Assembly (NCBI GenBank): GCA_036124005.1
Contig: JAZADD010000012.1
Coordinates: forward strand, 1 to 53,306
Length of the DNA stretch: 53,306 nt
Source of the DNA: Thermoplasmatota archaeon
Lineage (GTDB): Archaea > Thermoplasmatota > Poseidoniia > Poseidoniales > Thalassarchaeaceae
Reading direction: 5' to 3'
Position numbers and translations under genes: made by a program
Shown here: positions 19,259 to 53,306 of the stretch, piece by piece
How positions within the stretch are numbered: position 1 is the first letter of the stretch
How the letters are laid out: the number at the start of each line of letters is the position of its first letter
The notes under the pieces: generated by a model
Databases searched by the model: none
Told to the model about the DNA's origin: nothing
The model's input: only the letters and a program-made list of their open reading frames with translations

Positions 19259-20422
19259 TCAGAACCTTTCTTCCGAAGGTGTATCGCGTCTTTGCATATG
19301 GGCACGAATTGAAGCGATTTCACCGTAGAGTACTAACTCATCGTTTGGTTGTAGTACTAGATTTTCATCGGGAGACCAGATGTATTCTTTGCCACGTAGC
19401 ACCGTCAAAGCGCGTGAATCTTCCATTCGTACATCTTTGATTCGTCGTCCGATGAACTCAGGCCAATCCTTGATTCGGACAGTCAATGCACCATGTCCAG
19501 AGTGACGACGGAGAACGTCCTGCAGATTTGTGGATTGAATCTTATGTCGCTGTGAAATCATATCGATGATTTTCCCTGCAACATTCACTTTCGATGCCTT
19601 CTCGATACCTTCGAGTCCGGGACTTGAATTCACTTCTAGGAGAATTGGGCCATTTCGTCCTTCAAGGAGATCGACGCCGCCGACCTCAATGCCAAGGAGG
19701 TTTGCAGCACGAATAGCAATCTTAGCATAATCTTCCTTCAATTCAATCGCTTCTACCTGACCCCCAAGATGGAAGTTAGAACGGAATTCACGCCCTCTTG
19801 CAACGCGGCGCATCGCTGCAACGACTTCACCTCCAGCTACAATCACTCGTACATCTCTTCCGTGACTTTCTCGAATATATTCCTGAACGAGAACCGTTTC
19901 TCGATTTGCGAGTAAACGGTAGACGTGTTCGTTGGCATCCCTAATTGATCGAGCTAGATGAACCGAGTTACCTTGAGTTCCTTGACTTGCTTTAATGACA
20001 CAAGGTACACCACCAACTCTCGATATCGCCCTTCCAGTATCTCGCCAGGACGTCACGAGTGCGGTCCGAGGGACAGGGATTCCTTGATGCGATAGAATCT
20101 GAGATGCCGTTAGTTTGTCACGGCTACGAAGGATTGAATCAGCTGAGTTGGCAACATAGACACCTTGAGATTCAAATTGACGGACGACACGCACTCCTTC
20201 GGATGTCACCGAGTAACCTATTCTTGGAATCACTGCGTCGGCTTCAATGGGCCAACCTCGGTGGATAACCGCTCCATTTTGTTCACCAAGGGCAAGGCTG
20301 GTTTCTAACGGATCAACAATTTCAACTTCGGCGCCGCGTTTTTCTGCTTCAATCACGAGACGCCTTGTGCTGTACAGCTGGGGGCCGCGGGAGAGTATAC
20401 ACAGTCTCATCGCCCTCATCAT
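19259..20422 (-). CDS. rimK: RimK family ATP-grasp alpha-L-glutamate ligase with C-terminal TrkA-C/RCK-C-like domain
   Basis: LYSTRRL, VIPRIG, RDKL, FRSNFHLGG, EVNSSPGLEGIE; tail ...GRRIKD...VLRG...PDENLVLQPNDELVLYG. Start lies between 20410 and 20434. Confidence 0.88.
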   Translation of the reverse strand: MMRAMRLCILSRGPQLYSTRRLVIEAEKRGAEVEIVDPLETSLALGEQNGAVIHRGWPIEADAVIPRIGYSVTSEGVRVVRQFESQGVYVANSADSILRSRDKLTASQILSHQGIPVPRTALVTSWRDTGRAISRVGGVPCVIKASQGTQGNSVHLARSIRDANEHVYRLLANRETVLVQEYIRESHGRDVRVIVAGGEVVAAMRRVARGREFRSNFHLGGQVEAIELKEDYAKIAIRAANLLGIEVGGVDLLEGRNGPILLEVNSSPGLEGIEKASKVNVAGKIIDMISQRHKIQSTNLQDVLRRHSGHGALTVRIKDWPEFIGRRIKDVRMEDSRALTVLRGKEYIWSPDENLVLQPNDELVLYGEIASIRAHMQRRDTPSEERF

Positions 20423-20519
20423 TCGCCGAGCCACCCGTTCCCATCTTCAAATCATCCCTTTAGAGGGTCTACCAGAGATATGGGTTCGATTGAAATCGAA
20501 GCCCACCATCGGTTAAGTC

Positions 20520-21839
20520 ATGCAACCCGGGAATACATCCGCGAGAGAAGCATCTTCAGCAGAGGAATCCAACTCTGTTCAAGGCCCATCAATGGCGCCT
20601 CCTAATGGTCCGACATCCGCTCCAGCGGCGGCATTCGACCCTATCTCTGAGATGGAAGATAGAAGGAATCGAAAGGAGCAGCGGGAAAAGCAATTGAGTA
20701 ATCTAAAGGATAATCGTTCCAGTAAGCGAATGAATGTCTATCTTGTTCTTGGAATCCTTACAATCTTATTCACGTTCTCGTTTTTCCCTGTTACACAAGG
20801 TGATTTCTCAGAGAACCCTCATCAGAACCTCAGTGCAATAGAGGTCGAATCGTGGATGGATACTTCGGATGCGAATCCTAATCCTCATTGGTCACAGGAG
20901 CAGATAGATGATCGAGCAGAGAACAAAATCTGGGATGGGAGCGATTCTAATGCAGGTTCGTTTGAGCAAGATTTGAATCAATTGATGCTTGGTTTACCAG
21001 TCCTTGATCTTGGACCAATTAATGATGTTCAAGTAAAAGTGAGTCTCAAAGGGCACCGTTTCGATGGTGGAAACACTTCTTTCCGTCTAGGATTATTTGA
21101 GGCGCCAAACGGTTGTGCGATGTTGCCTTCTGCACTTCCTTGGGAATCATCTACAGGGTTGACAGATATCACGACAGAATCCCAAGTAATTCGTTATGAC
21201 CGATCAGATGCACCAGCTCTTCCATCAGGCCAAGAGGTAGAATTTGCTCTTACTGTGAAGCCGGGTAGACATTGCCTTGTGTTCCAGTATATCGAAGGTC
21301 AACGATTGTCATCTGACCAATGGGATGGCACTGATTATCAGTGGAAGGCTACAGTGGATGCACAGGCCCAGATGTTTTGGCCACGTGCCTTACTGCTTCC
21401 AATATGCCTCCTTCTTTTGCCACTACTAGTGGCTACTATCATTGGTGCACAGAAGGCTGGCGTTGCGTACAAGAATGTCAGATATCCAGAGGCATCTAAC
21501 AAGTCAACAGAGGAACAGGTGCTTGATGCAGCCGATGCCGAGCGTGAACTTGGTATGGATCTTGCTACTGGTGCTGAGAACACTGATGCCACCGAGGAAA
21601 GTACTGTAATGTCTGAGGATATGTCATCCGAGGACGAATCTTTGACAGATACTATTGTTGAGGCTGAGGAAGAAGCCAATGAGGTCATCGAAGAACAGAA
21701 TTCTGTTAACGAGGCCCAGCAAAGTGATGACAATAACAACTCAGTAAACACACAGATTAGTCAGTACACTGATGAACAACTCCTTGCTGCAGGATGGTCT
21801 GTTGAACAAATCGAACAATACCGCGGCGGTCAATCATAG
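20520..21839 (+). CDS. Hypothetical two-TM membrane protein with extracellular domain and acidic tail
   Basis: 439-aa ORF with two hydrophobic segments flanking a ~195-aa soluble domain. Confidence 0.75.
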   Translation: MQPGNTSAREASSAEESNSVQGPSMAPPNGPTSAPAAAFDPISEMEDRRNRKEQREKQLSNLKDNRSSKRMNVYLVLGILTILFTFSFFPVTQGDFSENPHQNLSAIEVESWMDTSDANPNPHWSQEQIDDRAENKIWDGSDSNAGSFEQDLNQLMLGLPVLDLGPINDVQVKVSLKGHRFDGGNTSFRLGLFEAPNGCAMLPSALPWESSTGLTDITTESQVIRYDRSDAPALPSGQEVEFALTVKPGRHCLVFQYIEGQRLSSDQWDGTDYQWKATVDAQAQMFWPRALLLPICLLLLPLLVATIIGAQKAGVAYKNVRYPEASNKSTEEQVLDAADAERELGMDLATGAENTDATEESTVMSEDMSSEDESLTDTIVEAEEEANEVIEEQNSVNEAQQSDDNNNSVNTQISQYTDEQLLAAGWSVEQIEQYRGGQS

Positions 21840-21929
21840 GGGCTCAAATCTTAATCCGTTACACCCCACGTCCAACGGTTTGATAGTGGCGACGGGGACG
21901 TCAACATAGGGAAAGGGGGGTGTGAGCCG

Positions 21930-23990
21930 ATGAAGCGAAGTGATCTCGAGAAGAGAACAGTCGCTGATCTGAAGGTTCTTCTTGAAGCGATGGGGCTTCC
22001 ACGTTCAGGCAAAAAGTCAGAATTAATTGATCGAATTATCGACTCTCTTCGACTCGATAGTCAGGATATTGAGGAAGAAGATGAAGTCGAGGAAGATGAG
22101 GGCTTTCTAATCCTTGAAGAAGAAGAGGTTGAATCGATTGAATCTCCTTCTTCAGTTGAAATCGAAGTCGAACAGGGCACTACCGAGGTTCTGGAAGCGA
22201 CTATTCTTGAAGCGGTCATAGTAGATTCAACTGAATCGAAGCCTAGACCTGAACCTCGCGGTAGGTCAAACGAATCAGTATCCTCGGATGATAGAAAGAA
22301 GTCCAATCGAGCCTTTTTCCTCGGTACTATTCTTCTCGTAGCCGCCTTGGCTGGTGGGGGATACTGGTGGACTTGGATGCAGGATCAACAGGCTTTCTCT
22401 GTTGAACCAGCACGCTATGGTGACAGCATGGATTTCACCATGACAGGTGGATCAGTTCAAGTCAACGGGAATGACATGGTTGCTCTACTCCGTGACAACA
22501 CTGGTTCTGCGCTGGAGAAGGCTTGTGGAGATCTTGCAATTACGATGAATGGTGTGTCTAGTATTGCCTATCGTGATGCCCCGACATCAGAAATTGGTGA
22601 CCCAACGGATCGGGACAATGCTGGAGCTACTGAGACTAGGGATGCTTATGGCCGCATCCATCTTGCTGCTGAACGGTCTCTTTCTTACGAACTTCTAGCA
22701 GACCTATCAGGAAGGACTTGGACTACGGACGGTAGTCGTTGTAGTAGTAGCCTCACATGGGAAATGAATGCGAATTCAGTAGATATCTCAGTTACTTCGT
22801 GGGAGGAGTTGACTGAAGCAACAACCATTCGCTCTGAAGCGACGATGGATTTCGTCACTCCTGATGGCGATCGAAGCATGTTACAGAACACGGCTTTTGG
22901 AGGAACAGGCATCGCAGCCATAGACGAAGTCCTTCCGCTTCTTTTGCAACCCGCGGTTCCATTGGATTTACGCTCTACTTTTGGCTCCATTTTACTTGAG
23001 GAGGGTTTGACTGGGACTACAGATGGCTGGGACTATACGGTTGAGCCTACGCAGCGTGTGAATGGCGAACTTCTCGTCCCAATCAAGATGGAGCAACCTA
23101 GTATTGCTACATGTCTTGGTCATGCAAAGATCGATCTTCTTGTACGTGAGGCGACGCCATGGCCTGTAGAGCAGAAGGTGGACATACTCATTGACAAGGC
23201 ACGCGAATCTAGTGATTGTAGTTGGCATGAATCCGCAGCCCTTGATTTCGCAGTACCTGATGGCCAATTGGTGATTACTTACACTCTTCGCGAATCTACT
23301 TTCACTGCGGGTGAACGTACCATTGTTTGGGGTGACCTATACAATAGCCGACCAGGTGCAGGTGAAGGAATACCGAATACACAAATACAGTGGGATGGTC
23401 ATATGCCAGATGAATCGACAGTTCATTCTTTTACTGTTGAGGAAGCAGTTGAATGCCTCATGAATTCGAGTGCAGGAAATGGAGTACGTTCTGCTCTCAA
23501 TAATGATGGCTACCTATACAGGATGCACCATACGAATGATGGCGCCGAGGAATCATGGAACCTCAGTTGGGTAGATCCTGATTCCGACGCAGGATGGACG
23601 TTGGTACGTTCTTCAGGAAGTGACTGTGAAGTTTTGGATGATGGTACCTTAGCCCCATCGGATGCACCGGAGTACAATCTCAATGCAATTCCCAATACAT
23701 TGTCAATTGCTGAAATGCAATCGAGGATGATGGATACGTCGGATTTCCTAGGGGCCACTCAAGTGTTGATGGATGGAGGCACACTGCGTTCAGATGTTGA
23801 ATTAACATCACGTCTTGTAGTTACACAAGATACAGGCCTCCTCGACTTTATTGATGATATTGACGAAGGCGAGGTCACCTTCACAGCTTCAAGGTCATGG
23901 ACAGATGATGCTTCTGAACATTCTTTCAATCTGATTATGGATGCAGAACGGGGTCGTATGGTGGGCTGGCTTCAAACTACAACTGAATGA
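21930..23990 (+). CDS. SAP-domain, single-TM protein with large C-terminal (probably extracellular) domain
   Basis: LEKRTVADLKVLLEAMGLPRSGKKSELIDRI matches the SAP consensus; acidic linker; TM AFFLGTILLVAALAGGGYWW; SD-like GGGGTGTGA upstream. Confidence 0.85.
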   Translation: MKRSDLEKRTVADLKVLLEAMGLPRSGKKSELIDRIIDSLRLDSQDIEEEDEVEEDEGFLILEEEEVESIESPSSVEIEVEQGTTEVLEATILEAVIVDSTESKPRPEPRGRSNESVSSDDRKKSNRAFFLGTILLVAALAGGGYWWTWMQDQQAFSVEPARYGDSMDFTMTGGSVQVNGNDMVALLRDNTGSALEKACGDLAITMNGVSSIAYRDAPTSEIGDPTDRDNAGATETRDAYGRIHLAAERSLSYELLADLSGRTWTTDGSRCSSSLTWEMNANSVDISVTSWEELTEATTIRSEATMDFVTPDGDRSMLQNTAFGGTGIAAIDEVLPLLLQPAVPLDLRSTFGSILLEEGLTGTTDGWDYTVEPTQRVNGELLVPIKMEQPSIATCLGHAKIDLLVREATPWPVEQKVDILIDKARESSDCSWHESAALDFAVPDGQLVITYTLRESTFTAGERTIVWGDLYNSRPGAGEGIPNTQIQWDGHMPDESTVHSFTVEEAVECLMNSSAGNGVRSALNNDGYLYRMHHTNDGAEESWNLSWVDPDSDAGWTLVRSSGSDCEVLDDGTLAPSDAPEYNLNAIPNTLSIAEMQSRMMDTSDFLGATQVLMDGGTLRSDVELTSRLVVTQDTGLLDFIDDIDEGEVTFTASRSWTDDASEHSFNLIMDAERGRMVGWLQTTTE

Positions 23991-24026
23991 ATCGCCACTC
24001 CAACACTTACTCGTCCGTCACCTTGA

Positions 24027-25007
24027 ATGCCTCAGGCATTCGCTGAGGTCTCGATGGGTTCCGATGAATATCCGGTTGCGGACATATCGTCCATTGATGA
24101 CAACCTCATCACCGATGTCGCATTTACTGAGGTTGAACACTCAATCGAACCCGAGTCATTCGATACTAAAGCCAGACCTCGCGAGTCTATCGAATTACCT
24201 AGGGCTGAACCAACAGCCACAGGTCTTGCGCGTGTCGTCACCGTGACCAATCAGAAAGGTGGTGTTGGAAAGACTACCTCTGTGATCAATATTGCAGCTC
24301 ATGTTGCGATGCGAGGGGGGCGCGTTCTCGTTGTAGATTGTGATGCTCAGGGAAACTGCGCCTCCGGTTTAGGCATTGACAAGTCACGTGTTAACATCAC
24401 AACAAGAGATGTTGTGCTTACGCCCGCGATGGCGACACAAGCACGCCATGCGACTGCTGTTGATGGACTTCATCTAATCGTTGGTGATAGAAATCTCATT
24501 GGATTGGAAGAGGCACTTGCATCACAGTTAGGGCGAGAGGGCCGCCTTAGCGAAGCCCTTGAACCGCTCAAGCCACATTACGATCTGATTCTAATCGATA
24601 CTGCGCCTTCATTGAGTATTGTGTCAATCAATGCATTGACTGCTTCAGATGCAGTTTTGATTCCAGTGCAAACAGAGTACCTTGCTCTAGAGGGAGTTGC
24701 ATTGTTGACGGGGACTCTCAACGAAGTACGCCGTTTACTCAACCCACGTCTTGGTGTGGATGGTGTGATTATGACGATGCATGCACCAACCCTTCTGAAT
24801 ACACAGGTCGCAGGCCATCTCAGAGAGGTATTCGGTGATCTTGTCATCGAGCCAGCTATTCGGCGTAATATTCGTCTTGCAGAATCACCGAGTCAGGGTG
24901 TTCCGATTCAATTCCATGCTCCACAGAGTCATGGTGGTCAAGATTATGCTGCATTAGCTACAGAACTAGAAGCACTCTGGTTCCCAGGAGGCCTTCGTAA
25001 TGAGTAA
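24027..25007 (+). CDS. parA: ParA/Soj family ATPase
   Basis: NQKGGVGKTT deviant Walker A, DCDAQGN, IDTAPS, PVQTEYLALEG, IRRNIRLAESPS; alternative start 24054. Confidence 0.95.
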   Translation: MPQAFAEVSMGSDEYPVADISSIDDNLITDVAFTEVEHSIEPESFDTKARPRESIELPRAEPTATGLARVVTVTNQKGGVGKTTSVINIAAHVAMRGGRVLVVDCDAQGNCASGLGIDKSRVNITTRDVVLTPAMATQARHATAVDGLHLIVGDRNLIGLEEALASQLGREGRLSEALEPLKPHYDLILIDTAPSLSIVSINALTASDAVLIPVQTEYLALEGVALLTGTLNEVRRLLNPRLGVDGVIMTMHAPTLLNTQVAGHLREVFGDLVIEPAIRRNIRLAESPSQGVPIQFHAPQSHGGQDYAALATELEALWFPGGLRNE

Positions 25008-25446
25008 TGATAGACGTCGACTTGGTCGCGGGCTAGACGACCTTATGGCTCAGAATGAGATGGATTTGCCCTTTCTTTCCGCTTATGGCCCTGCATCTGA
25101 GGCGGAAGAGGACATCTCTCAAGCCAAGATTCCTCCTGAGGAGATTTTTGATGCAGTCATACGACATCTTCGATCACTTGGATGTAAAATAGAATCCGTA
25201 GAGGGGGGTAAACTCACAGTTCAAGGATTGACCGTGGTGATTGATGAAGACGCAGTTCAACTCATCTTTGAGAACGCGGTCCGCCTTCCGTTTGTCCCCA
25301 GTGATCTTGCATCACCAGGGTTGAGCGAGGGCCAAATCGATGCAGATGGTTGTAGAGCTTGTGTGATGATTCAAGCTTGGGGGATAGAAGCAAGACGTTG
25401 CTTGTCTCGATTTATCGAACACGTTACCATCAATGATGACGAATGA
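25000..25446 (+). CDS. Small parA-coupled protein with ParB-type N-terminal LGRGL motif
   Basis: Starts MSNDRRRLGRGLDDLM; overlaps the parA 3' end by 8 nt; CAGGAGG SD upstream. Confidence 0.8.
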   Translation: MSNDRRRLGRGLDDLMAQNEMDLPFLSAYGPASEAEEDISQAKIPPEEIFDAVIRHLRSLGCKIESVEGGKLTVQGLTVVIDEDAVQLIFENAVRLPFVPSDLASPGLSEGQIDADGCRACVMIQAWGIEARRCLSRFIEHVTINDDE

Positions 25447-26002
25447 TTGCTGCTATTACGAGTACTGAGATTATTCCAGCGAGTCCCACTGTGGGGACAG
25501 TACTAGTATCTTCAGTATTGTTTTCAACGCAACTATCGCCACCTTCGTAGGCTTCACCGCCCCAACCATCGCCATCGTTCCAGCAATCGGACCAAACTTT
25601 CCAGCCGAATCCAGTATCAGGGATTTTCTTCTGTTCTTCAGAGGCATTTTCAAGCATGAGATTCCAATTCACGTAGGTCTGATCCGTCATGGAGGATACT
25701 GTGCTAGTCCATGTGATATTATCTTCAGTTACCATCTCAATCTGTTCAGGAGGATAGCAGAGTCCGGTGTTTACGCAAATTTGAGTGGTTACGTATACTT
25801 TCACTGCGTCTGAGCTTTCATTGAGATTTACACGGATTACAAAATCCTCCTTTTGACTAAAGATTGAAGGCGAATCCACACTATCAATTCCAGTGTCTGA
25901 AAGGTCGCTAAATGATTCGTTGACGCCACCTTTCGACGCAGCCGCAACAGTGGTGGCGGAGACGATTATCATAATCATTGCAAGTGCAACCAGCGCCCTC
26001 AT
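25430..26002 (-). CDS. Secreted protein with C-terminal TM anchor (PGF-CTERM-like)
   Basis: Signal peptide MRALVALAMIMII; ends VPTVGLAGIISVLVIAAIIRHH. Confidence 0.72.
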   Translation of the reverse strand: MRALVALAMIMIIVSATTVAAASKGGVNESFSDLSDTGIDSVDSPSIFSQKEDFVIRVNLNESSDAVKVYVTTQICVNTGLCYPPEQIEMVTEDNITWTSTVSSMTDQTYVNWNLMLENASEEQKKIPDTGFGWKVWSDCWNDGDGWGGEAYEGGDSCVENNTEDTSTVPTVGLAGIISVLVIAAIIRHH

Positions 26003-26062
26003 GCACATATTCGTGTTACTCGACCTATTCAACGATTTTCCATTCCTGTTGCTAGACTGTTG

Positions 26063-26581
26063 TTAACTCTCAACTTCCCACAAATCATCACCAATCCAGT
26101 GTATTGTTCTGAGTGCCTTACCTTTAGTGGAAGTCTTCATCTCTTCAGCATCTAATAATGACCAGCCCATTGCAATTGGTTTTCCATGTTCTTCATCTCG
26201 AATCCAGATTAAATCGCCACGTTTGATGGCCGGGTCTACCATCTGTACACCCGCTGCCATACAGTCTGCGCCATTCATTAGAAATGGAATTGCACCTCTA
26301 TCGACAGCACACCATCCAACCTCAAGATTCCAGCGTAAGAGCCCACGAAGCGTGGGAAAGATCACTGATTCAACATCGCCTAGATCCTCCGGACGATCGA
26401 TTGTCATCACGAGGGGAATACGATCTCCGAGAAGGAGATTCAAATCTCCAAATTCAGCGATTTCAAGGAATACATCTGAGAAGTTATCCTCGATATTCAG
26501 ATTCTCATTCAGAGAATCAAGGATGCGTCGTACGACCTTCAGTCGTACGGGCTTCCTCTTCCTCATCCTACGCTTTGCCAT
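26063..26581 (-). CDS. PUA-domain RNA-binding protein (MCT-1/Tma20-like)
   Basis: FPTLR, VDRGAIPFLMNGADCMAAGV, KGKA...HWIGDDLW. Confidence 0.9.
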   Translation of the reverse strand: MAKRRMRKRKPVRLKVVRRILDSLNENLNIEDNFSDVFLEIAEFGDLNLLLGDRIPLVMTIDRPEDLGDVESVIFPTLRGLLRWNLEVGWCAVDRGAIPFLMNGADCMAAGVQMVDPAIKRGDLIWIRDEEHGKPIAMGWSLLDAEEMKTSTKGKALRTIHWIGDDLWEVES

Positions 26582-52000: not shown

Positions 52001-53306
52001 ATGGAATGGAAGGTCACGGATCGCGAAGATACTGGAGATGTAATGCTGTTGCCCTTTTGGCAGTCGAAGTCAAAGCCCCCCCATAATTCATTGAATGGCC
52101 TTACTCGTTCGGCGATAACGAATGTGAAGCGTGCCCTTTCTGGCCAGCGATTCGATGGAAAGGTGGGGTCCACCTTGTCGCTTTGGTCTGATGATTGCCG
52201 CGTGATTCTTATTGGAATGGGGGAGATAGATAATCTGACTCACAAGATCGCTCGTGATGCTGGTGCAAAAGCCATAGCTGGGTTGTCAAAGAAGGATGGA
52301 ACAAATCTTACGGTTCGTTTCACTACAGGATGGAATCTAGAGGCTATGAAGTGGTTTGTCGAGGGTATGATGCTTCGTGACTACGCCTTCCTAAAGTATC
52401 GAAAGAAGGATCGTGAGGAGGCCGAAGAGAAGGGTAACTGGAACCTAACAATTCAGTCTTCTGAGCGTTATCTAACAGATTTGCAGGCAGATATCAAGAC
52501 GATCTCTGCTCGTGTCGAGGGGGTCCATCTCGCACGCGATCTCGGTAATGAGCCCCCAAACCATCTCTATCCAATGACATATGCTGCACGTGCTCAGAAT
52601 TGGGCTAAGGGTAAGAACAACGTAAAAGTCGAGGTTTACGATTGGGAACGCCTCCAAGAGGAAGGTATGGGTGGATTAATCAATGTCGGTAAGGGCAGTT
52701 CTCGAAAGCCTTGCATGGTGATATTCACAGTTAATCCCAATGTGGATCCAAAGGCCAAGGTGCCTTGTATTGTTGGTAAGGGGATTACTTTCGATACTGG
52801 AGGTATTTCGCTTAAACCAGGGGCATCAATGGACGAAATGAAGTATGATATGCATGGGGCTGCCACTGTTTTCGGTCTGATGCACGCACTTCATGCGTCT
52901 GGTCACCGTGGTCGTGTTCACGGTATCGCATGTTTGGCGGAGAACATGCCAAGTGCAGAGGCTTACCGGCCAGGAGATGTCATTCCAACTTATTCAGGTA
53001 AGACAATTGAGGTTCTCAACACTGACGCTGAGGGACGAAATGTTCTCGCGGATGGCCTTTGGAAGTCAGGTGAACTAAATCCAGAGTATGTCATTGATCT
53101 TGCAACATTAACCGGAGCTGTCGTCGTTGCTCTTGGACATGAGGCGACAGGCTTGTGGTCTAACGATGATGACTTGCAGGAGCGTATCCACAAGGCAGGT
53201 AACGCAGAAGATGAAATCGCTTGGAAGATGCCTCTACTGCCTGCCTTCGAGAAGGAGATGACAGGATCGAAGATTGCAGATGTCCGCAATCTTGGCAAGA
53301 GCCGAT
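52001..53306 (+). CDS. pepA: Leucyl aminopeptidase, M17 family (3' end outside the window)
   Basis: Not in the ORF track. Frame from ATG 52001 contains GKGITFDTGG.SLK, MKYDM, NTDAEGR and DLATLTGA. Confidence 0.95.
   Translation, partial: MEWKVTDREDTGDVMLLPFWQSKSKPPHNSLNGLTRSAITNVKRALSGQRFDGKVGSTLSLWSDDCRVILIGMGEIDNLTHKIARDAGAKAIAGLSKKDGTNLTVRFTTGWNLEAMKWFVEGMMLRDYAFLKYRKKDREEAEEKGNWNLTIQSSERYLTDLQADIKTISARVEGVHLARDLGNEPPNHLYPMTYAARAQNWAKGKNNVKVEVYDWERLQEEGMGGLINVGKGSSRKPCMVIFTVNPNVDPKAKVPCIVGKGITFDTGGISLKPGASMDEMKYDMHGAATVFGLMHALHASGHRGRVHGIACLAENMPSAEAYRPGDVIPTYSGKTIEVLNTDAEGRNVLADGLWKSGELNPEYVIDLATLTGAVVVALGHEATGLWSNDDDLQERIHKAGNAEDEIAWKMPLLPAFEKEMTGSKIADVRNLGKSR

Follow-up and report, generated by a model that had tools for sequence, protein, structure and literature searches.

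A ParB-type ParA-binding motif on a small non-ParB protein encoded beside a Soj-type ParA in Candidatus Poseidoniales: a candidate adaptor

Introduction

Chromosomes, plasmids, and protein machines are positioned by ATPases of the ParA/MinD kind, whose partners are difficult to identify; many ParAs count as orphans. The stretch of DNA analysed here, hereafter the window, comprises 53,306 nucleotides (nt) of a Thermoplasmatota archaeon (assembly GCA_036124005.1, contig JAZADD010000012.1). Directly after a gene for a Soj-type ParA (ParA1), it encodes a protein of 148 amino acids (aa) with the N-terminus MSNDRRRLGRGLDDLM, which reads like the start of ParB/Spo0J and is followed by none of the ParB domains. 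The question raised by this locus is what such a protein does beside a ParA. An original prediction, made from the sequence of the window, proposed an adaptor that links ParA to a cargo through a C-terminal part unrelated to ParB. We favour a reading of this kind, to which we assign a probability of roughly 0.55: the small protein would be an adaptor partner of a Soj-type ParA in Candidatus Poseidoniales, combining a ParB-type tail with a sandwich domain that holds a cargo. We infer from sequence that the tail binds ParA and activates its ATPase, and we likewise infer which ParA is served (the adjacent ParA1, a distant ParA2, or both) and what the cargo is.

An N-Terminal Tail of the ParB Type

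The canonical ParB motif is LG-R/K-GL (PMC12260392; this and the other papers cited are drawn on in excerpt), and ParB of Myxococcus xanthus requires L11, L15, L18, and I19 together with the central R13 for ParA engagement (PMC12462528). The nine-residue motif in the tail of the small protein (tail motif 1) agrees with it at all five mapped positions, L8, R10, L12, L15, and M16 corresponding to M. xanthus L11, R13, L15, L18, and I19 with the same spacing of i, i+2, i+4, i+7, and i+8. Thus, the LGRGL motif of ParB type noticed in the original prediction is borne out by the motif mapped in M. xanthus. Annotated Spo0J/ParB N-termini contain GLGRGI and GLGKGI (full starts VAKGLGRGINVFF and MAKGLGKGINALF), and residues 1-12 of the small protein include four Arg and one Asp. 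When the family profile was aligned to an annotated Priestia ParB with hhalign, 13 columns were paired, namely residues 5-17 with ParB residues 2-14, at an E value of 0.08, while a tblastn search of plasmids with the 35-aa tail returned no match.

The motif is rare at the start of proteins. A six-frame translation of the window's own genome gives 6148 open reading frames (ORFs) no shorter than 60 aa, of which only four carry LG[RK]G[LIVM] at most 20 residues from a possible start. Three of these are a MutL-like gene in which the motif precedes the real start, a spurious-looking ORF, and an ORF with the motif at residue 20; the 148-aa ORF is the sole credible case and the sole one located beside a ParA. 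The position of the gene right after parA, which had been noted from the sequence, also holds. Its ATG at 25000 lies 8 nt within the 3' end of the parA ORF (24027-25007), an overlap identical to that of the annotated soj/spo0J pair of Bacillus thuringiensis. A convergent ORF (25430-26032, minus strand), which is syntenic in relatives, overlaps the stop codon of the 148-aa ORF by 17 nt. This overlap rules out a longer reading frame and agrees with the earlier view that no frameshifted continuation is present.

The tail is clearly under selection. Residues 8-30, although predicted to be disordered, are the best-conserved part of the protein in a diverse alignment, where the mean share of the commonest residue is 0.71 in tail motif 1 (residues 8-16), 0.78 in a second linear motif (tail motif 2, residues 22-30), 0.27 in the linker (31-44), and 0.42 in the folded domain (45-148). 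R10 and L12 are each found in 0.89 of the sequences of alignment A2 and L15 in 0.96, while in tail motif 2 F25 and L26 are invariant and L23 reaches 0.96. Tail motif 2 occurs only once in the window's own genome. The whole gene is under purifying selection, with a ratio of nonsynonymous to synonymous substitution rates (dN/dS) of 0.14 (0.052/0.373) between two close relatives. Conservation of LGRGL in orthologues, which the original prediction had singled out as a check, was found in ParA1-adjacent genes, where the exact motif is present in 19 of 22 cases in a first sample and in 15 of 19 in a species-representative sample; the latter (31 loci in all) was collected by peptide patterns biased towards intact tails and shares species with the first.

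A Folded Domain in Place of the ParB Body

The AlphaFold2 model of the small protein, built with 28 diverse homologues in the alignment, has a mean predicted local distance difference test score (pLDDT) of 84.8, which is unevenly distributed. Residues 1-44 (pLDDT 52-59) are predicted to be disordered except for a short helix at 13-16. Residues 45-148 (pLDDT 96-98) are modelled as a helix (46-59), four strands, a short helix (100-104), two strands, and a final helix (129-146), so that only two long helices are present, with six strands between them. According to this model, residues 45-148 form a two-layer alpha/beta sandwich, comparable in kind to frataxin, YjbR, double-wing, or chaperone folds.

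None of the ParB domains was recovered. No Pfam or NCBIfam model, including the N-terminal CTPase domain with its GxRRxxA box (PF02195), matches the 148-aa protein at E <= 0.1, and residues 41-148 have no Pfam match of note at E <= 1. Neither the profile comparison nor BLASTP extends an alignment past the tail into the helix-turn-helix (HTH) or C-terminal dimerisation domains of ParB; BLASTP against B. thuringiensis Spo0J gives no match at all, and the family profile finds only noise (E of about 1) among PDB sequences. The earlier statement that the protein lacks ParB CTPase and HTH domains is therefore upheld by domain searches, profile comparison, and the structural model alike.

Structural comparison points to several small alpha/beta folds. 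The matches listed by VIA-align comprise a YdhG-like protein (9t2w, Z 8.4), YjbR (2fki, Z 8.1), the C-terminal domain of T4 MotA (5jlt, Z 7.5), a DUF419 protein (2a1v, Z 7.4), frataxins (Z 6-6.6), type III secretion chaperones (Z 4.4-6.4), and the double-wing domain of Escherichia coli YdcD (Z 5.0), with values below 8 being compatible with a merely common arrangement of elements; no family is claimed for residues 45-148 for this reason. Foldseek ranks SycT best (E 5.9e-3), followed by YbjN-family proteins and MotA, with template modelling (TM) scores of 0.34-0.52. The fold compared in the case of the chaperones and YbjN is the alpha-beta-beta-beta-alpha-beta-beta-alpha sandwich of the type III secretion class I chaperones. 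ParB, ribbon-helix-helix (RHH), or HTH partition proteins are not among the matches listed by either program, an absence that in itself excludes nothing. The features of the locus are collected in Table 1.

Table 1. Positions of the genes, domain, and motifs discussed, numbered from the first nucleotide of the window.
Feature	Position	Strand	Description or basis
SAP-domain membrane protein, 686 aa, candidate cargo/anchor	21930..23990	+	Pfam SAP, 7.3e-11; AlphaFold2
ParA1, Soj-type deviant Walker A ATPase	24027..25007	+	Pfam AAA_31, 5.7e-51
Candidate ParA-partner gene, 148 aa	25000..25446	+	Disordered tail and alpha/beta sandwich; stop codon 25444-25446
Tail motif 1, L8-G9-R10-G11-L12-D13-D14-L15-M16	25021..25047	+	ParB-type ParA-binding motif, by sequence spacing
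Tail motif 2, D22-L-P-F-L-S-A-Y-G30	25063..25089	+	Second conserved linear motif
Folded domain, residues 45-148	25132..25443	+	Helix, four strands, short helix, two strands, long helix; AlphaFold2
Convergent gene, 200 aa	25430..26032	-	Hydrophobic N- and C-terminal segments; bounds the 148-aa gene

Distribution of the Module and a Second Body for the Tail

The family of the 148-aa protein is confined to Candidatus Poseidoniales. Searches recovered 42 homologues in a set of 5.8 billion clustered proteins and 40 representative clusters in another of 1.84 billion; full-length members measure 110-185 aa, shorter entries resemble fragments, and no homologue longer than 185 aa turned up, which is weak evidence. 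Where public sources name the protein at all, the name is 'hypothetical protein', and a search of the ESM Atlas yielded only uncharacterised Thermoplasmatota clusters. Among 201 genomes sampled from the class, the small protein is present in 18 of the 66 genomes of the window's family (f1), in 87 of the 89 genomes of the sister family (f2), and in none of the 45 genomes of families f3 and f4. The SAP-domain membrane protein encoded upstream of ParA1 shows a matching distribution in f2 and a wider one in f1 (62/66 in f1, 88/89 in f2, and 0/45 in f3 and f4, with 0/43 in f3 by itself). ParA1 matches at E <= 1e-30 are found in 64 of the 66 f1 genomes, three of them (G148, G152, and G167) at the level of ParA2 only, and ParA1-grade matches in 8 of the 89 f2 genomes.

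Three arrangements of these genes recur. In form 1, as in the window, the SAP gene is followed by ParA1 and the small gene (genera g1, g2, g3, g8, g10, and g11 of f1; g18, g19, and g21 of f2). In form 2, which is seen in the small genomes of f1 genera g4-g7, g9, g12, and g13, the slot after ParA1 is occupied by a gene of about 320 aa with EamA domains (Pfam), and the small protein is found in none of the 48 genomes of these genera. In form 3 (f2 genera g14-g17 and g20), ParA1 is missing and the small gene directly follows the SAP gene; at three loci of g14, the small gene still stands beside its usual downstream neighbours and the SAP gene is no longer adjacent. In the ParA1 tree, a single branch (support 80/95) separates form 1 from form 2, a topology that one swap could have produced.

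The second body carries the same tail. Among 28 EamA loci after ParA1, 14 encode proteins with the tail, in which the first motif reads LGRGL in 12 and LGRSL or LGRNL in the others, followed 10-12 residues later by GPDLSSFV, the counterpart of tail motif 2; both motifs are constant, whereas the spacer between them is variable. The EamA domain is present in each of the 107 database clusters with this tag region (E <= 1), and those for which the sources give a name are called DMT family transporter or DMT-like permease. The occurrence of one tail on two unrelated proteins after parA thus fits a portable ParA tag that is placed on different bodies. The N-terminus of EamA/DMT proteins faces the cytoplasm.

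Two contigs with small and SAP genes (L080 and L087) are filed in Deltaproteobacteria and Yoonia bins; they are probably mis-binned Poseidoniales contigs.

ParA1, ParA2, and a Plausible Peptide Pocket

ParA1 is a typical member of the Soj type, with an invariant deviant Walker A motif (NQKGGVGKTT; alignment A3), and its nearest solved relatives are M. xanthus ParA (8RAY, 1.9e-53) and Thermus thermophilus Soj (1WCV, 2.3e-51). It is thereby close to ParA and Soj proteins for which the ParB motif acts as an activator. Its conserved start is probably M10 at 24054. A second Soj-like ATPase, ParA2, is present in every genome checked, is about 41% identical to ParA1 over residues 144-313, and likewise matches M. 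xanthus ParA 8RAY and T. thermophilus Soj best. In long assemblies, it lies 30-58 kb from the module, after genes resembling those for aIF5B and MoxR. A small ORF that follows ParA2 has no Pfam match and looks RHH-like from its sequence pattern alone; ParA2 and this neighbour probably form a DNA-segregation pair of the SegAB/HpaAB kind. An example is seen on contig C77 of genome G000 (about 52246-53232; 5247-6233 in L041), where a Soj-like ParA2 follows aIF5B-like and MoxR-like AAA genes and precedes the small ORF.

In M. xanthus ParA, the positions of the ParB-peptide pocket probed by mutation are V116, L150, L152, L155, L187, and L192 (PMC12462528). Structure 8RAY covers residues 21-274 of the D60A variant, in which the residue number equals the chain index plus 19, as checked on 13 residues named in that paper. 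The six positions correspond to E162, L196, I198, I201, E233, and L238 in the window's ParA1, so that four of the six are hydrophobic, and T. thermophilus Soj likewise has E at the L187 position. At the direct-contact positions L150, G151, L152, and L192, the family consensus of ParA1 is L, G, L, and L, and ParA2 has L, G, L, and V. By this comparison, a pocket for the ParB peptide is plausibly present in both ATPases.

Residues 1-68 of ParA1 (24027-24230) include a conserved acidic N-terminal extension of about 65 aa with an isoelectric point (pI) of 4.05 and the pattern LPE..APLVIDVEFTEEE ... LELP..PTP.GRARVV, which is absent from ParA2 and from the aligned bacterial Soj proteins. A perfect 17-nt palindrome, GAATGCCTCAGGCATTC, occupies 24025-24041, just 5' of the conserved start; four relatives (L022-L025) have a different palindrome, CGAGCGCCGnAGGCGCTCG, at the same place, and a common motif of the form CGTCAnnnTCAAnA lies further upstream in the SAP-ParA intergenic region. 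The palindrome may be an operator or an RNA element. In L006 (contig C11 of genome G002), the ParA1 match is in two pieces without residues 128-213, which could reflect a deletion, a masked stretch, or an assembly fault. A stand-alone 131-aa ORF on contig C89 of genome G000 (L001, 1501-1896), located away from ParA, scores exactly at the Pfam cut-off for ParB_N (26.3 bits) and is the sole ParB_N match in this genome, which is 80% complete.

The SAP-Domain Membrane Protein and a Proposed Mechanism

At most of the loci examined, the gene immediately 3' of the SAP gene is ParA1 or the small gene. The product of the SAP gene scores 41.8 bits against PF02037 (cut-off 23.9), and two orthologues also score above the cut-off. 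From its N-terminus, the protein comprises the SAP domain (residues 5-41; AlphaFold2 pLDDT 83-89), an acidic linker that is disordered in the model (42-124; pLDDT below 50), a single transmembrane helix (123-151), and a C-terminal part rich in beta structure (about 160-686; pLDDT 80-95). Beyond the SAP domain, no Pfam match was found. Foldseek listed only beta-barrel matches of low TM score (at most 0.16; TbpB, Fsa2, and GH43 enzymes), from which no fold was assigned, and the ESM Atlas returned only uncharacterised Thermoplasmatota clusters for the C-terminal part. The combination of a eukaryote-type DNA-binding SAP domain with a single-pass archaeal membrane protein, conserved across the order, is an observation in its own right.

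ParA/MinD partners generally address the ATPase with a charged, disordered N-terminus, while the remainder of the protein binds the cargo (PMC10241942). The small protein, which has such an N-terminus and is encoded beside the ATPase, fits this general rule and is read as a ParA partner of the adaptor type. In the mechanism that we propose, the flexible tail of about 44 residues would engage the ATP-bound ParA dimer through LGRGLxxLM and trigger hydrolysis, while the sandwich of residues 45-148 would hold the cargo. The likeliest cargo would be the neighbouring SAP-domain membrane protein, which could tie DNA to the membrane; the cytoplasmic linker of this protein, long and disordered, would be a fitting ligand for a chaperone-like sandwich domain. 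In the sister genera with form 2, the tail would act as a portable tag fused directly to the EamA membrane transporter encoded in the same gene slot.

A more elaborate version of this scheme is a three-part 'split ParB' machine, in which the SAP protein provides DNA binding and the membrane anchor, the adaptor grips its linker and displays the ParB tail, and the Soj-type ParA reads that tail. Such a machine would tether or position the nucleoid with respect to the envelope, or envelope proteins along the nucleoid, and the tail would be an address label that has been moved onto a transporter. As a whole, this version is a tentative proposal, and we regard it as more doubtful than probable.

Evidence against the Adaptor Reading and Alternative Explanations

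Several observations weigh against an adaptor that serves the adjacent ParA1. In the species-representative sample, 12 of the 31 loci lack ParA1 between the SAP and small genes, and 10 of these 12 still have the exact MARKLGRGLDDLL (or MGRKLGRGLDELL), which makes the motif independent of an adjacent ParA1; in all five such genomes checked, only a ParA2-grade match was found. Conversely, the tail is missing from 14 of the 28 EamA proteins after ParA1 (6/6 loci in g4, 3/3 in g5, 3/6 in g6, and 2/3 in g7) although ParA1 is still present, and a search of four tag-less genomes for a tag at a second site, using a degenerate LG[RS]G[LF]...DL pattern on the DNA, gave chance-level matches only. Thus, ParA1 can persist without a recognisable tagged neighbour. 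In f2 genera g14, g15, g16, g17, and g20, which have no ParA1-grade match, the exact LGRGL is found in 1 of 29 loci (0/9 in the first sample and 1/20 in further ones). Of these 29, however, 28 retain R[GD]LDHL[MI], a core that still includes the arginine along with three of the four hydrophobic positions. This erosion may trace to a single loss, so that these loci do not count as independent evidence. Tail motif 2, which ParA1-less genomes also retain, has no counterpart in ParB. Finally, the position of R189, the DNA-binding arginine of Soj, is P in ParA1 and Q in ParA2, and nucleoid binding by either is on this account unproven.

An apparent rule that the exact LGRGL tracks adjacency to ParA1 (19/22 against 0/9) was considered and dropped, as it is contradicted by the ParA1-less loci that keep the motif. 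No statistics were drawn from the patterns of motif and ParA1, since few evolutionary events may underlie them. The tail may have ParA2 as its target besides, or in place of, ParA1. Of the adaptor originally proposed, the conserved motif and the folded non-ParB body stand, and the tag on EamA proteins adds to them, but the link to the adjacent ParA is looser than was assumed.

Alternatively, the small protein could mainly be an accessory or chaperone-like partner of the SAP membrane protein that works independently of ParA, with a tail that binds something else and whose LGRGL resembles ParB by convergence or by chance. The two proteins co-occur across the order, their genes directly adjoin where ParA1 is missing, and the small protein is kept in ParA1-less genomes; furthermore, binders of extended polypeptides (type III secretion chaperones and YbjN) are among the weak fold matches, the SAP protein offers an 80-residue disordered linker, and the most conserved element, tail motif 2, is not ParB-like. 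We nevertheless judge this explanation unlikely, as the nine-residue motif fits ParB at every mapped position, ParA1 sits exactly between the SAP and small genes in many lineages, a Soj-like ParA2 is available in every genome checked, the EamA fusions keep the tail even though the folded domain is gone, and in genus g14 the SAP gene has moved away from the small gene. Less likely still is a functional analogue of ParB, in which the folded domain would bind centromere-like DNA through a double-wing or YjbR-like sheet and the tail would activate ParA, giving a two-component system like those of ParA with ParG, SegB, or HpaB. The matches to the DNA-binding domain of MotA, to YjbR, and to the YdcD double-wing speak for this, as do the residues R55, H56, R132, R133, and R137, which are invariant in alignment A1, and the HpaB-type partners of archaeal ParAs, described in the excerpted sources as small DNA-binding proteins of about 150 aa that contact ParA through the N-terminus. 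Yet the Z scores lie in the range in which VIA-align may report common arrangements, the tail also occurs on a membrane transporter without a DNA-binding part, and ParA2 with its RHH-like neighbour already resembles a DNA-segregation pair. Moreover, neither a repeat array nor a parS-like site was found in 20000-26100, where a repeat search gave only short two-copy families. The acidity of the folded domain (pI 4.64) was dropped as an argument against DNA binding, since it weighs little in a proteome with a median pI of 5.05, 29% of the genome's long ORFs being at least as acidic.

The N-terminal motif, the position after a Soj-like parA, and the overlap of soj/spo0J length could, in addition, be what is left of a bacterial-type parB of which only the 5' end has been kept. 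We consider this highly improbable: the folded part is confidently modelled, is conserved across two families of the order, and belongs to a gene under purifying selection, the alignment to ParB is limited to 13 residues of the tail with no Pfam ParB domain behind them, and the homologues are all of the same short length. The original view that the C-terminal part is unrelated to ParB, and not a decayed fragment of it, is supported by the same observations. The adaptor reading remains the one that we prefer.

Relation to Known Partition Systems

The small protein resembles ParB/Spo0J (type Ia) in having L, G, R, G, L, x, x, L, and a hydrophobic residue within the first 16 residues of an unstructured N-terminus, the M. 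xanthus ParB peptide comprising residues 1-20, and in being encoded directly 3' of a Soj-type parA. It differs in its length (148 aa against about 285 aa), in the absence of the ParB_N CTPase, HTH, and C-terminal domains, in its alpha/beta sandwich body, in its second motif DLPFLSAYG, and in its archaeal host. ParT of the Streptomyces plasmid SCP2 likewise has no CTPase domain and a flexible N-terminal peptide, which activates ParA; however, ParT keeps the HTH and C-terminal dimerisation domains of ParB, binds parS independently of CTP, and uses an SRR motif (PMC12260392), whereas the small protein retains the ParB motif and nothing of the ParB body. A closer likeness in principle is offered by McdB, CheW-type, and PomX partners and by the 'luggage tag' idea, according to which the ATPase is addressed by a charged, disordered N-terminal tag on a protein whose remainder is part of the cargo (PMC10241942). 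The tags of these partners, as described in that source, are system-specific and not of the ParB type, in contrast to the canonical ParB motif found here on two unrelated bodies, a soluble sandwich and a multi-pass EamA protein.

Among archaeal systems, SegB of Sulfolobus and HpaB of Haloferax are also small proteins encoded after a bacterial-type ParA, whose N-terminus contacts ParA, a contact that is only predicted in the present case. SegB and HpaB bind DNA through RHH or HTH domains, none of which is predicted in the small protein, and the excerpted sources report no LG-R/K-GL motif for them. In the three-part AspA-ParB-ParA system of pNOB8, an adaptor stands between the DNA binder and ParA (PMC13722703). 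The excerpt of the SegAB preprint contains no mention of Thermoplasmatota or Poseidoniales. In the literature searched, supplements excluded, neither the small-protein family nor the SAP-ParA module was found described, nor was an EamA transporter bearing a ParB motif, and queries combining ParA with Marine Group II, or the SAP domain with archaea and ParA, as well as queries for LGRGL, returned nothing relevant. The principle of a tagged ParA partner is established; what is new is the exact ParB motif on non-ParB bodies, in this archaeal order, as part of a conserved, membrane-linked module.

The exact address peptide of ParB thus occurs outside the ParB family, in uncultured and globally abundant marine archaea, and one of the bodies that bear it is an integral membrane transporter. 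If the tail acts on ParA, nature would provide an instance of the portable tag put forward in synthetic biology, and the pattern LG-R/K-GL-x-x-L-hydrophobic near a start codon beside ParA would become a sequence handle for non-ParB partners. The SAP-domain membrane protein would, in that case, provide a link between nucleoid and membrane in archaea, for which no description was found in the literature searched.

Genomic Setting and Occurrence

The neighbouring genes of the window are archaeal and include those for S8e, SRP19, and a PUA-domain protein (Pfam). The locus is not origin-adjacent, since about 150-520 kb separate the module from the Orc1/Cdc6 genes of three long assemblies. Promoter-like and terminator-like sites around the locus are not above the shuffled expectation. 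Evidence for expression of the module is weak: the metatranscriptome contigs over 25276-25536 and over portions of the SAP gene come from two runs of a single sample, with carry-over of DNA being possible, and a third RNA run gave no contigs over the locus. The window itself is wholly or partly present in 20 seawater or marine metagenome runs, with at least half of the sampled words found in 18 of them. Upstream of the SAP gene and on the same strand, an ORF at 20520-21839 encodes an acidic protein of 439 aa with two hydrophobic segments and a weak match to SAM_SMF.

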